DNA of 40,893 bases from a phage. How positions within the stretch are numbered: the first letter of the stretch is position 1; each line of letters starts with the position of its first letter. Of this stretch, positions 3,340-12,963 are shown piece after piece. The stretch lies in sequence record PZ513996.1; one strand, written 5' to 3'. The position numbers and the translations under genes were made by a program. The notes under the pieces were generated by a model. That model did not search any database, was not told the DNA's origin, and worked only from the letters and a program-made list of their open reading frames with translations.

Positions 3340-6036
3340 GTGCCTATTACTCAAAGTGTACAACGTCAAGGCTTGCAGCTTCAAGGTGTTCAGCTTCAGG
3401 CTACTGAGGCAGTACAGGGGGCGGTAGGTGCAGTAGCAGTAGATGACTCAGCATTAGCTAGGCGTCAGGCTATTGGTCAGTTCCTTCAAGGAACAGTAGA
3501 AGGATTCTCTGCGCGTGCTCAGGTATACGGCGCTAAGGTAGCTGTACAGGGTGCGCTTGATGCTCAAGGTGCTGTCGACTTAGAAGCTACTAGAGATGAG
3601 AAGGTTAAGCAGCAGAACATATTCCTTCGTGATTCTTATACACAAGGCTACACCTCCGCAGCAGTAAGTCGTGAGCTTGCTGACTGGCGTATAGGCGCTC
3701 TTCAGCGTGCTAACTCCGCAGCAGCGCAAGGCTTGTCTGATGAGGAGTTTCGTTTACAAGAGCAACAGGGTAATGCTAAGTTCTCTGAGCAAGTATCCAA
3801 GTGGCTACCTCAGCTGGACCGCCAGGCTGCTGCGGCTACTCTTACACAGGTGCAGCAAGCTAGCGCAGCTAACTATGCCGCCTTCCAAGAGGGACGCGCT
3901 AAAGTTGCTAATCAGCGAGCAGATGCTGCATTAGACCAGAACTTAAGTGCCTCCGGTCAGGAGTTCTTTAACCATATCCAAAGCGGGAATATCCCTGCCG
4001 GTGACGCTGCTGTAGTATCTGGTATGAGTGCCATTCTAGGTGCGGGGCACCTCGATAAAAGTAGTAAGTTTGCACGTGTACAGGACTATCTTGTATCTAT
4101 TGCACAGAATGCCACTGACCCTCTGGTCATTGACCGTATTCAACGTATTGCAACTGAGCAGCTCGGTGTTAACTCTGTAGATGTCGTTAAGGCACTGCGT
4201 ACTGAGTTTAAGCGTGCAGGCTCCCAGATGGAAGCACAGGTCCGCTTTGATATTGCTGACCAGCTTGAAGCTCTCCGTAGTGCATCCCCGGAACAGCAGG
4301 AAGTAGCTTTACAGAATATCCGCTCCCAAGTACAGCAGTATGGGCGCAGTGGTGTATTAAGCACAGGTACTCAGCTTAATATCTGGAACAGTGCTACTAA
4401 GCTTCGTGATGATGCAGCGGATAAGTATGCGTTGCAGATAGCGATTAATAATCGTCAGCCTACGTCTGTACTTGCCGGTCAGTTCGAGGGGGATGTAGAG
4501 AAAGCGCAGAAATTCATCTTGGACCAGTTCCCGGATACTCCGGTAGGTAATGCTACGCTTCTACAGTACGGTAAGACCTCTAAAGATGCAGGACTTATCC
4601 AGAAGGCTAACCAGCGTACTTCACGCTTAATGGCTAACACCTTAGCCTCGCTGGACTCTCTCGCAGAGGACGGTACAGTTAGTGCAGAGAACAACGCAGC
4701 TATCGCAGGTTGGGTACAGCAGTACATCTCTGGCGGTGACTTAGATAAGATTGCACTGAGCGGTGACGTACCTGAAGAGTACCGTGGTATTATTCAACGT
4801 GCTGCTGCTCAGGGCCAGTCTAACGCTAGTAATATCATTCTGGATGATATCCGTCGTTTAGCCCGTAACCGTGCAAGCGGACGCTATGATAACCTCCCAG
4901 CTAATCCTCCGGAAGCAGCTATTGATGCTGAGTCTACTGCTAACTGGTTTAGCTTTGGTGATACTGCGGACCAGCAGCGTCAGGAGGGACGTGTAGCATT
5001 ACAGGAAGAGTATAAACAGTTGTACCGTAGCAACCCTGAACTTCTGGTAGGTAAGTCCCCGGAGGATATCAACACGCTTCTTAAGGGACGTATCCAGTCC
5101 CGTCAGTTGCAGGTTGAAGTATCAGGTAAGCCGCGTCACGTTTATCTTCCCGCTGGTACTACACTCGCAGACCTTCAAGGCTCTTATCGTGGGGATGCCG
5201 AACAGTTCCGTACTGCACTTGCTCAGCAGATTCAAACTAGTGTTGATGCCATAGCTGACCCTTCTAAAGTTTCCCGTGTAATCGTGCAGGCTGGTACTGC
5301 TGGTGCGCAGGGTCAAAACTTAACTGCTTCTGTCCTTACTACTGATGGTATCTACCAGAACGTAAGTATCGACGTGCAGCAGGTTCAGCAGCTAGCTCAG
5401 GCTGGGTACGATGAAGCACTAGCTGGTGGTATTGAGATTGGTCAGAAGGCTGTAGGTTCTCGCCCTGCTACATTCTGGGATGCTGATAATGGACGTACTA
5501 TTAGTCTGAACGTTAATGGCAAGAACAGTGTTGGGATTCAACCTGCCCTCTTCTCAGACATCGTAGCTACTACTGCTCAGTTCGAAGGCTTCCGTGCTAC
5601 TAAGAAGAAAGGTAGCGTAGGCTTTGGTCTGCATGATAACTCTGGCTTACCAGTTCCTGAATCCCTGACTCCTGAACAAGGTATTGAGGTATTGAAAGGT
5701 TCTCTCGAGAAGCAGTACATCCCTGCGGTTAAGAAACAGCTGCAAGGTATTACTCAGGACCCTTCTGGGCTGAAGCTTCTGGTAGACTTGAACTATCACG
5801 GTGGTAACGGCAGTTCCGCCCCTGTAGCAGATGCTCTTCGTACCTTGAAATCAGTACAAGGTCAAGGCTCCTCTGCGACATACGGCTACCAGCAGGACCC
5901 GTTCCAAGCGCAGTCTTTAGTAGGGCTGGATACACTTAAGAAACAGCCTGCTTATAAGCAAGCCCAACCTAAGCGTAAACAGTACCTGGAGATTCAGTAT
6001 TGGCAAGCGGTTCAAGCTGTCCGTCTTGGTCAGTAA
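3340..6036 (+). CDS. internal virion protein B (T7 gp15-like core protein)
   Basis: 898 aa, GTG start directly after in-frame TGA; Gln/Ala-rich coiled-coil-like; size and position between the large and small internal virion proteins. Confidence 0.5.
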   Translation: MPITQSVQRQGLQLQGVQLQATEAVQGAVGAVAVDDSALARRQAIGQFLQGTVEGFSARAQVYGAKVAVQGALDAQGAVDLEATRDEKVKQQNIFLRDSYTQGYTSAAVSRELADWRIGALQRANSAAAQGLSDEEFRLQEQQGNAKFSEQVSKWLPQLDRQAAAATLTQVQQASAANYAAFQEGRAKVANQRADAALDQNLSASGQEFFNHIQSGNIPAGDAAVVSGMSAILGAGHLDKSSKFARVQDYLVSIAQNATDPLVIDRIQRIATEQLGVNSVDVVKALRTEFKRAGSQMEAQVRFDIADQLEALRSASPEQQEVALQNIRSQVQQYGRSGVLSTGTQLNIWNSATKLRDDAADKYALQIAINNRQPTSVLAGQFEGDVEKAQKFILDQFPDTPVGNATLLQYGKTSKDAGLIQKANQRTSRLMANTLASLDSLAEDGTVSAENNAAIAGWVQQYISGGDLDKIALSGDVPEEYRGIIQRAAAQGQSNASNIILDDIRRLARNRASGRYDNLPANPPEAAIDAESTANWFSFGDTADQQRQEGRVALQEEYKQLYRSNPELLVGKSPEDINTLLKGRIQSRQLQVEVSGKPRHVYLPAGTTLADLQGSYRGDAEQFRTALAQQIQTSVDAIADPSKVSRVIVQAGTAGAQGQNLTASVLTTDGIYQNVSIDVQQVQQLAQAGYDEALAGGIEIGQKAVGSRPATFWDADNGRTISLNVNGKNSVGIQPALFSDIVATTAQFEGFRATKKKGSVGFGLHDNSGLPVPESLTPEQGIEVLKGSLEKQYIPAVKKQLQGITQDPSGLKLLVDLNYHGGNGSSAPVADALRTLKSVQGQGSSATYGYQQDPFQAQSLVGLDTLKKQPAYKQAQPKRKQYLEIQYWQAVQAVRLGQ

Positions 6037-11406: not shown

Positions 11407-12963
11407 ATGCAAAAGCGTTTAGCAGATTTATTCGTTCGATTGAAGGATGCATCTACACTAGACGCTGCTGAGCAATACGCTCGCTGGACACTTCCTAACG
11501 TATTCACTAAGGATATTACAGCGAGTGACGGTAAGCGTACTTCTCTGGTGCATGACTATCAGAGTACTGGTGCGCTGCTTGTCAACTCAGCAGCTACTAA
11601 GATTGTAGATGCATTGTTTCCACAAGGCAGTCCATTCTTTAGATTCGCGGCATCCGCTGACCTTACAGGGATTGTTGACCAATTAGGTCTGCAAGGTCCG
11701 GTCTTCTCAGCTCAGGCTGAAATGGAAGCTGTAGCATCTAGTATCGTATTCACTAAAGGTGGGTATGCTGCAAAGCTACGCGCTATTAAACTATTACTCG
11801 TAACTGGCAATGCTCTGGAATACTTCGACTCCGAAACTGAACGTTCTTACGTATACAGCGTGCGCGATTATGCTACTAAGCGTGATGGAGCCGGTAACGT
11901 ACTGACTACAATCCTACGTGAACGTATCAGCGTTGCGGATATCCCAGATGATATCCGACGAGCTCACTTCTCCAATAAGGAGATGTACGATGATGTGCGC
12001 TTATTTACTGGAATTATGCGTGAGCGTCGTGAGCTTGGTTATGTATATAAAGTATATCAGGAAGTCGAAACCTACCCTGTAGGTGAGCCTAGCTATTATC
12101 CTGAGGACCAATGTCCGTACGTAGTACTGGCATGGAACCTTGTTAATGGTGAGCACTACGGTCGTAGCCTCGTTGAGGATTACGCTGGTGACTTCGCCCG
12201 TTTATCTGTACTTTCCCGTAGCTTAACCTTGTATGAGGTGGAAGCAGCGAGAGTAGTTAACATGGTTAGCTCAGCTTCTGGTGTAGATATTGATGCATTG
12301 CAAGATGCAGAGACAGGTGAGTTCGTACAGACTAACCAGCCCGCAGGTACCAGTTCTGGAGTATGGTCCCATGAAGGTGGGAACGCTCAGAAGATTGCCG
12401 CGCTACAAGCTGAGATTAGCACTATCGAGCAGAAGCTATCCCGTGCATTCATGTACGGCGGTAACACTCGTCAAGGTGAGCGTGTAACTGCTTATGAGAT
12501 TCGTCAGAATGCTCAAGAAGCACAATCAGCCTTAGGTGACGCTTACTCTACACTTGCAGATAATTGGCTTCGTAAACTCGCGTACCTGTACGTTCTTAAT
12601 AAGTATCCTGAGATTCGACCTATGTTCGAGCTCGGTGCATTGGAGCTGGATGTAACGGTAGGGACCGCTAGCTTGTACAAGTCAGCCCAGGCTGATAGAC
12701 TACTTGAAGCAGTACAGAGTCTTCAATTAATTGTACCAGTACTGCAACAGGCAACTGTACGTACTAACGTTGATGCTTTGATTGACAGTGTAATGGATAG
12801 CTTCGGCATTCAGAGCAGTGCCTTCTTCTATAGTGAAGAGGAATTGCAAGCACGCCAGCAAGCAGAGCAAGCACAGCAGCAGCAGGACCAGCAGCAGCAG
12901 CAATCATTATTGCAAGTTACTGACCCGACTGTAGCAGGTCAACAATTAGGTTTAATTCAATAA
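11407..12963 (+). CDS. portal (head-tail connector) protein, T7 gp8-like
   Basis: 518 aa; NGEHYGRSLVEDYAGDF and TRQGERVTAYEIRQNA match T7 gp8 DGESYGRSYIEEYLGDL and QRTGERVTAEEIRYVA. Confidence 0.85.
   Translation: MQKRLADLFVRLKDASTLDAAEQYARWTLPNVFTKDITASDGKRTSLVHDYQSTGALLVNSAATKIVDALFPQGSPFFRFAASADLTGIVDQLGLQGPVFSAQAEMEAVASSIVFTKGGYAAKLRAIKLLLVTGNALEYFDSETERSYVYSVRDYATKRDGAGNVLTTILRERISVADIPDDIRRAHFSNKEMYDDVRLFTGIMRERRELGYVYKVYQEVETYPVGEPSYYPEDQCPYVVLAWNLVNGEHYGRSLVEDYAGDFARLSVLSRSLTLYEVEAARVVNMVSSASGVDIDALQDAETGEFVQTNQPAGTSSGVWSHEGGNAQKIAALQAEISTIEQKLSRAFMYGGNTRQGERVTAYEIRQNAQEAQSALGDAYSTLADNWLRKLAYLYVLNKYPEIRPMFELGALELDVTVGTASLYKSAQADRLLEAVQSLQLIVPVLQQATVRTNVDALIDSVMDSFGIQSSAFFYSEEELQARQQAEQAQQQQDQQQQQSLLQVTDPTVAGQQLGLIQ

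Follow-up and report, generated by a model that had tools for sequence, protein, structure and literature searches.

Mirrored gene order in a phage sequence is an artefact of joining 59 separately extracted gene calls

Two natural contigs, Escherichia phage vB_EcoP_PAS7 (OQ921331.1) and the metagenome contig ENA k119_69777, carry on one strand the order portal, scaffold, capsid, tail tube A, tail tube B, internal virion proteins, gp16, tailspike and terminase. On the plus strand of PAS7 the early part reads primase/helicase, DNA polymerase, exonuclease, endonuclease, RNA polymerase and portal, and the late part continues from the portal through scaffold, capsid, tail tube A/B, internal virion proteins, gp16 and fibre to the small and then the large terminase. 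The DNA analysed here (the window; 40,893 nucleotides at its full length) has the same gene content as PAS7, with a nucleotide identity of 71-93% over matched genes, whereas its gene order is reversed and its intergenic DNA is missing. Its segments match PAS7 and k119_69777 on the same strand, at positions that fall strictly from one segment to the next, and identity to k119_69777 is 98-100% for most segments. The window also has a BLAST match to the KP34 capsid gene, and we take the source phage to be kin to KP34-like and phiKMV-like podoviruses, which have a single-subunit RNA polymerase. The one-strand order of Slopekvirinae, phiKMV-like and KP34-like phages is found in the source record described below and in its relatives, and not in the window as written.

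The source of the window is GenBank record PQ847473.1, Escherichia phage vB_EcoP_P64441 (42,960 bp; Autographivirales, Autoscriptoviridae, Slopekvirinae), a phage described, according to the citation in PMC12930829, by Li X et al. (Virology 2025;609:110570). When 59 coordinate pairs are taken from this record, each gene is turned to its own sense strand and the pieces are joined, the product is identical to the window at 40,893/40,893 bases. Exact substrings of the record account for 57/59 segments, 56 of them from its minus strand; the other two, which come from the ends of the record, match it exactly once an appended TAA and a prefixed ATG are set aside. The window is thus an artificial head-to-tail string of 59 gene calls and not a stretch of a genome (probability about 0.99). 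The reversed gene order is a data-handling artefact; no biological mechanism is involved, and the arrangement holds no biological novelty. The first-pass annotation had proposed that coding sequences of a genome deposited on the minus strand were listed and concatenated in sense orientation, and this is borne out by the rebuild and by the annotated CDS of PQ847473.1, which lie on the minus strand without exception (53/53).

The same picture emerges from the tiling of the window itself. Its 59 start-to-stop ORFs fill it exactly and share one frame (40893 = 3 x 13631). Every segment begins with ATG, GTG or TTG, closes with a stop codon and has a length that is a multiple of three, and at 58/58 junctions the stop is followed directly by a start, with neither spacer nor overlap. 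Such a pattern (spacing of zero 58 times, one frame 59 times) is far beyond chance. Of the bases in the window, 40,887 come from the record, those in overlaps entering the count twice, and the other 6 were added; compared with PQ847473.1, 2,261 intergenic bases are missing and 188 overlapped bases are present twice.

PQ847473.1, in contrast, is an ordinary genome with spacers and overlaps and with its genes all on the minus strand, and the order in the window is the mirror of its transcription order. None of the same 58 neighbour pairs has a spacing of zero in the record (0/58); 19 pairs overlap and 39 are separated by gaps, with spacings between -44 and +277 nt. The genes are spread over the three frames of the record (19/19/18), compared to a single frame in the window. 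A Shine-Dalgarno-like motif lies upstream of 38/56 starts in the record and of only 10/56 in the window, against a background of 8.6% for any 14-nt stretch; by this count, the initiation signals upstream of starts have been lost. Overlap bases, for their part, are doubled in the window, where they appear as repeat families D4 and D5. It had been suggested that reversing the segments would collapse the duplicated junction k-mers into natural overlaps, and it does: suffix/prefix identities of 4-44 nt are found at 16 junctions in the reversed order versus 2 in the given order, while in 1000 random orders the number averaged 2.2 and never exceeded 6.

Coordinates of all features discussed are collected in Table 1. 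The eight ORFs of the structural block all lie on the plus strand, each directly abutting the next, with internal virion proteins first and the portal last, as the first-pass annotation had read them. The real genome looks different at these boundaries. The genes for tail tubular proteins A and B overlap by 1 nt, and 277 nt separate the major capsid gene from that of tail tubular protein A; this spacer holds a GenBank CDS (7756-7950) that has no counterpart in the window. GenBank does not annotate the 31-aa ORF between the capsid and scaffold genes, and the call is probably spurious. No reference phage with capsid, scaffold and portal in this sense order on one strand was found; the two natural contigs examined for gene order both have portal, scaffold and capsid.

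Table 1. Features of the window and their origin in PQ847473.1. In the structural block (3340-12963) family assignments are from PHROG and product names from GenBank.
Feature	Window position	Strand	Record PQ847473.1	Evidence or remark
Whole window	1-40893	+		59 gene calls joined, single frame, without intergenic DNA
Two small ORFs and 520-aa tail fibre	1-1827	+	31562-33648	
gp16-like internal virion protein, N-terminal part	1828-3213	+	1385 down to 3	cut at record left edge
125-nt copy	3086-3210	+		identical to window 38383-38507; repeat family D2
Internal virion protein B, 898 aa	3340-6036	+	1516-4212 minus	PHROG 2083, E 1.5e-204
Internal virion protein, 183 aa	6037-6588	+	4214-4765 minus	PHROG 4295
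Tail tubular protein B, 782 aa	6589-8937	+	4779-7127 minus	PHROG 457, E 1.4e-206
Tail tubular protein A, 184 aa	8938-9492	+	7127-7681 minus	PHROG 446; TTG start
Major capsid protein, 330 aa	9493-10485	+	7959-8951 minus	PHROG 267
Small ORF, 31 aa	10486-10581	+	8964-9059	no family match; capsid-scaffold spacer
Capsid assembly scaffolding protein, 274 aa	10582-11406	+	9075-9899 minus	PHROG 1018
Portal / head-to-tail connector, 518 aa	11407-12963	+	9909-11465 minus	PHROG 449
RNA polymerase	13624-16074	+		RNA_pol PF00940, E 3.4e-92
40-aa ORF	22441-22563	+	21457-21579 plus	sole segment from record plus strand; written in own sense
DNA polymerase, C-terminal half	22564-23751	+		DNA_pol_A
DNA polymerase, N-terminal half	23752-24897	+		position and GenBank product name
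Helicase	25639-26913	+		DnaB_C
Primase	26914-27684	+		Toprim_2 21.3 bits, just below cut-off 22.1; GenBank 'putative primase'
Terminase, large	33064-34830	+		
Terminase, small	34831-35130	+		
gp16-like gene, C-terminal part	38380-40893	+	42958 down to 40448	cut at record right edge

The inversion is also seen in genes elsewhere in the window. Helicase precedes primase, as had been noted earlier, although the Toprim_2 score of the latter falls slightly below the cut-off, and the large terminase precedes the small one, also in agreement with the earlier reading. The claim that the polymerase domain precedes the exonuclease domain holds in so far as the C-terminal half of the DNA polymerase is placed ahead of its N-terminal half; the name of the second part does not stand equally well, because the N-terminal half had no match in a Pfam scan or a PDB sequence search, and the exonuclease label is thus based on position and on the GenBank name. 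In true transcriptional order the single-subunit T7-type RNA polymerase gene lies late in the DNA-metabolism module, a short way ahead of the portal gene. The end of the backward order, previously given as internal proteins, fibre and terminase, is approximate: the genes there are gp16, an endosialidase tailspike and then the terminase, and the 520-aa fibre comes after the lysis genes.

The gp16-like gene is represented by two halves near opposite ends of the window. The TAA that closes the N-terminal part (3211-3213) and the ATG that opens the C-terminal part (38380-38382) are both synthetic, the intact gene reading CTG and ACT, respectively, at these positions; together they make up the six synthetic bases, which patch the two edge-truncated halves. 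The 125-nt copy goes back to a terminal overlap of 127 bp that was left untrimmed in the deposited contig (record 1-127 = 42834-42960). This assembler overlap is a flaw of the public record as well, where it splits gp16 in the PQ847473.1 annotation.

While segments 4 to 59 follow ascending PQ847473.1 coordinates, the block of segments 1-3 was moved to the front; its place in the real genome is between window segments 51 and 52. The resulting arrangement, [1-3][4-51][52-59], is a block swap and not a rotation, and circular rotation of the list was rejected as its cause. Lexicographic sorting, whether by coordinates or by gene numbers, and a two-contig source also fail to give this arrangement. 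It is very unlikely that the block reflects a true variant or sub-population of P64441 with the 520-aa tail-fibre module relocated beside the internal-virion-protein genes; the neighbouring gp16 fragment stops synthetically, exactly at the edge of the deposited contig.

The displaced block also bears on the least improbable of the alternatives, namely that the concatenate was made from a rearranged assembly of the same phage, with the fibre block beside the N-terminal half of gp16. Segments 1-3 lie off the record order, as such a source would have it, and the succession of gp16-N and fibre, seen when the window is read backwards, is superficially T7-like. Nevertheless, the gp16 cut points coincide exactly with both ends of PQ847473.1 and the two halves share its terminal overlap, and therefore the source contig had the same ends. 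The fibre gene directly follows the endolysin gene in three natural contigs, with a 244-aa early gene next in the two that reach further, and rotating the natural A-B-C does not yield B-A-C. We consider a rearranged source to have a probability of about one in a hundred.

Less credible still is a genuine phage genome whose genes were inverted or re-ordered one by one. Nothing other than the raw appearance of the window speaks for it, and it needs 58 precise rearrangements, none of which may leave an intergenic base and after which all genes must share a single frame. Enrichment of Shine-Dalgarno motifs before starts is absent, gp16 is cut in two with a synthetic ATG and TAA at the cuts, and the canonical order is found in two independent natural contigs; the exact rebuild from a deposited, normally spaced genome refutes this reading. 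Least probable of all is that the window is the plain reverse-complement strand of a natural genome, which would suit the deposition of the source record opposite to convention but predicts minus-strand genes where 59/59 are in sense on the plus strand, does not fit the missing intergenic and doubled overlap bases (2,261 and 188, respectively), and is refuted by the fact that, beyond single genes, the window is collinear with neither strand of PQ847473.1.

The concatenation of gene calls most probably came about as follows. A gene caller was run on PQ847473.1, whose deposited sequence is the reverse complement of the conventional orientation and hence carries all its genes on the minus strand. 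The 59 predictions were cut out, each in sense, and ATG and TAA were supplied for the two that ran off the contig ends; the pieces were then joined end to end, segments 4 to 59 by ascending record coordinate. As the genes were flipped and the list was not, sense genes came to lie on the plus strand in mirrored order. Such handling removed all the intergenic DNA, with its ribosome-binding sites, promoters and terminators, and doubled the overlap bases. That the window is identical to the record, and with which strand and in which order, is observed directly; which software was used, and why, we infer.

Some details depart from a simple listing of annotated genes. Segments 1-3 come first, and the 59 calls of the window differ from the 53 CDS of the GenBank annotation, with different starts for four genes and one call, record 34218-34364, in another frame inside the holin gene. 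The listing model of the first-pass annotation is therefore right in its recipe and wrong in part of its detail, namely the GenBank CDS set, the order of segments 1-3, the one plus-strand segment and the added ATG and TAA. None of these points favours a natural origin. Neither the truncated gp16 product (a 461-aa fragment) nor the 588-aa short-start terminase has an entry in a large gene-position collection.

While the biological significance of the arrangement is nil, it matters for data hygiene, and the window is unfit for analysis as genomic DNA. Its proper stand-in for later work is PQ847473.1 turned to the reverse complement, cut back by the duplicated 127 bp to a true length of 42,833 bp and rotated to the physical ends. 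Duplicated junction k-mers, the 125-nt long-range repeat, the split of gp16 between the window ends and the missing promoters and terminators all follow from the concatenation. Any finding from it that rests on the order of genes, on the sequence at junctions, on signals between genes, on boundary repeats or on strand composition is compromised.

The closest likeness to the construction of the window is a CDS multi-FASTA export, such as the output of a gene caller or the GenBank 'coding sequences' download. We know of no exporter in which patching with ATG and TAA or an out-of-order block is standard. In contrast to such an export, the window has ATG and TAA added to edge-truncated genes and a three-gene block out of order. 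In other respects the two agree: genes are given in sense orientation, intergenic DNA is absent and overlaps are doubled, and the entries are listed by ascending coordinates whatever their strand, as in segments 4 to 59.

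The window is tiled entirely by 59 consecutive ORFs, which a frame walk from base 1 places in a single frame (40,893 bases = 3 x 13,631). ATG, GTG or TTG opens each one and a stop codon closes it, with no bases between neighbours and none common to them; we number them segments 1-59 in window order. The first-pass annotation had described genes that keep their sense orientation in an inverted order, and the ORF walk confirms this together with strong PHROG matches of the structural genes (E down to 1e-204): the order is mirrored relative to canonical podovirus synteny. The other pairs it had named are present as well: by GenBank names, helicase precedes primase and large terminase precedes small. 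The DNA_pol_A-bearing half of the polymerase likewise precedes the other half. Given this order of structural genes and the presence of these pairs, the observation stands.

Features of the window and their counterparts in PQ847473.1 (the record)
Feature	Window position	Record position	Remark
Segments 1-3: 38- and 48-aa ORFs, 520-aa fibre	1-1827	31562-33648	natural site at window 31752/31753
gp16-like internal virion protein (gp16), one part	1828-3213	1385 down to 3	TAA added at 3211-3213; CTG in intact gp16
Terminal duplicate, 127 bp	3086-3210 and 38383-38507	1-127 = 42834-42960	
Internal virion protein B, 898 aa	3340-12963, + strand, item 1		
Internal virion protein, 183 aa	same region, item 2		
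Tail tubular protein B, 782 aa	same region, item 3		
Tail tubular protein A, 184 aa	same region, item 4		
Major capsid protein, 330 aa	same region, item 5		
31-aa ORF	same region, item 6		
Scaffold protein, 274 aa	same region, item 7		
Portal protein, 518 aa	same region, item 8		
Site of the missing 64-aa CDS	between 9492 and 9493	7682-7958	CDS at 7756-7950
Pentapeptide-repeat proteins	21670-22251 and 28015-28551		
Segment 31, 40-aa ORF	22441-22563		
Family A DNA polymerase, two ORFs	22564-23751 and 23752-24897		44 nt duplicated, 22564-22607 = 24854-24897
Segment 53, 48-aa ORF	32308-32454		holin gene at record 34190-34438
Tailspike, 1082 aa	35131-38379		
gp16, other part	38380-40893	42958 down to 40448	ATG added at 38380-38382; ACT in intact gp16

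A megablast search of the phage collection with 3340-12963 returned one record, PQ847473.1 (Escherichia phage vB_EcoP_P64441), at 99.9% identity and 100% query coverage, the match lying on its minus strand and broken into 8 pieces. This record, 42,960 bp long, is of a member of the Slopekvirinae, and its 53 annotated CDS are all on the minus strand. When each segment was searched for as an exact string, 57 of the 59 were found in the record (56 on the minus strand, one on the plus strand), and record coordinates ascend through segments 4 to 59. The window comprises 40,887 record bases (overlaps counted twice) and 6 added ones, and a scripted rebuild that applies 59 coordinate pairs to the record equals it at every position, which supports the earlier proposal that CDS of a minus-strand deposit had been joined in sense orientation. 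Each gene was reverse-complemented into sense and the list was left in the low-to-high coordinate order of the record. The order looks inverted because the genes were flipped individually and the list was not, the record having been deposited "backwards", with its coordinate order the reverse of transcription. The mirrored order is thus an artefact of sequence construction, and the synteny of the phage is ordinary once the artefact is undone.

Junction properties of the same gene calls differ between the two contexts. Spacings between neighbours in the record range from -44 to +277 nt (n=58; 19 overlaps, 39 gaps, none of 0), and the spacing is 0 at 58/58 junctions in the window; similarly, the calls divide 19/19/18 among the three frames of the record but occupy a single one in the window. 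A Shine-Dalgarno-like motif, scored 4-16 nt upstream of the start (background 8.6% for any 14-nt stretch), accompanies 38/56 starts in record context versus 10/56 in window context. Reversal of the segment order, the check suggested by the first-pass annotation, yielded 16 junctions with end/start identity over 4-44 nt, where the native overlaps between genes reappear. This compares with two junctions in the order as given and, across 1000 random orders, with 2.2 on average and never more than 6.

Comparison with two natural contigs confirms the true order. On the + strand of a relative, Escherichia phage vB_EcoP_PAS7 (OQ921331.1), helicase, two-part DNA polymerase, exonuclease, endonuclease and RNA polymerase are followed by portal, scaffold, capsid, tail tube A, tail tube B and internal virion proteins, and then by a single 1256-aa gp16, fibre, small terminase and large terminase. 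The ENA metagenome contig k119_69777, 98-100% identical to the window for most segments, runs from gp16 (1256 aa) through endosialidase, small terminase, large terminase, lysis genes and the 520-aa fibre to early genes. Segments match both contigs on the same strand with strictly descending segment number, the sole minus-strand match being a 59-nt part of segment 31.

The two segments that lack an exact match are the gp16 halves, each cut by one end of the deposited contig and closed by a codon foreign to the record; the ATG and TAA patches show that the string was made on purpose to resemble complete ORFs. The terminal duplicate resembles an assembler k-mer overlap that was never trimmed. Without it the true length of the record, which is flagged circular, would be 42,833 bp. 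Because the duplicate sits inside gp16, GenBank carries a pair of "peptidoglycan lytic exotransglycosylase" CDS, of which one wraps the origin; its removal gives a single gp16 ORF of 1256 aa, the same length as in PAS7 and the ENA contig. Both in the record and in natural contigs, the place of segments 1-3 is between segments 51 and 52. No sorting rule or list rotation that places them first was found, and their position is not natural, since the gp16 fragment next to them is closed at the contig edge by a synthetic stop codon. The two small ORFs fall in a 547-nt stretch that separates the fibre gene from the first early gene and has no GenBank annotation; it may be a regulatory or terminal region, and the ORFs spurious calls.

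The window has 59 calls versus 53 in the GenBank annotation. Segments 1, 2, 5, 11, 14, 18 and 31 are small ORFs beyond the GenBank set, and starts differ for segments 32 (polymerase half), 40 (pentapeptide-repeat protein) and 56 (large terminase). A GenBank CDS for a hypothetical protein between tail tubular A and capsid is absent from the window; PAS7 also has a small CDS so placed. Segment 53 lies inside the annotated holin gene in a different frame, and the real holin is therefore absent, replaced by an out-of-frame ORF. The holin site in natural contigs gives weak Pfam holin matches. Segment 31, the sole segment taken from the plus strand of the record, lies within a 272-nt spacer, and its 59-nt part matches positions 14961-15019 of the ENA contig, an early-region intergenic spacer, inverted and at 83% identity. 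This match hints at a repeated intergenic element (e.g. promoter or terminator) rather than a gene.

The polymerase ORFs overlap by 8 nt in the GenBank calls. PAS7 likewise has two polymerase ORFs with an 8-nt overlap, at about 78-80% nucleotide identity, so that the split (or programmed frameshift) appears to be a conserved trait of the clade and not a sequencing error. The two pentapeptide-repeat proteins are paralogous and carry a 15-nt periodic repeat (repeat family D1, 37 registers). For the homologous region, PAS7 has an opposite-strand annotation, "modular polyketide synthase", that is probably mistaken.

The source phage, a podovirus that infects UPEC, has been published (Li et al., Virology 2025;609:110570, as cited in PMC12930829). 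Its tailspike of 1082 aa, a K1-type endosialidase, has at its N terminus a T7 tail-fibre adaptor domain, followed by the full endosialidase domain set (End_N_terminal, beta-propeller, beta-barrel, tail-spike) and a C-terminal Peptidase_S74 chaperone, a combination that implies specificity for the K1 polysialic-acid capsule. The real genome has this tailspike directly after gp16, and the second, 520-aa fibre follows the lysis cassette. The genome is organised as in the Slopekvirinae, the structural module being immediately preceded by a single-subunit RNA polymerase.
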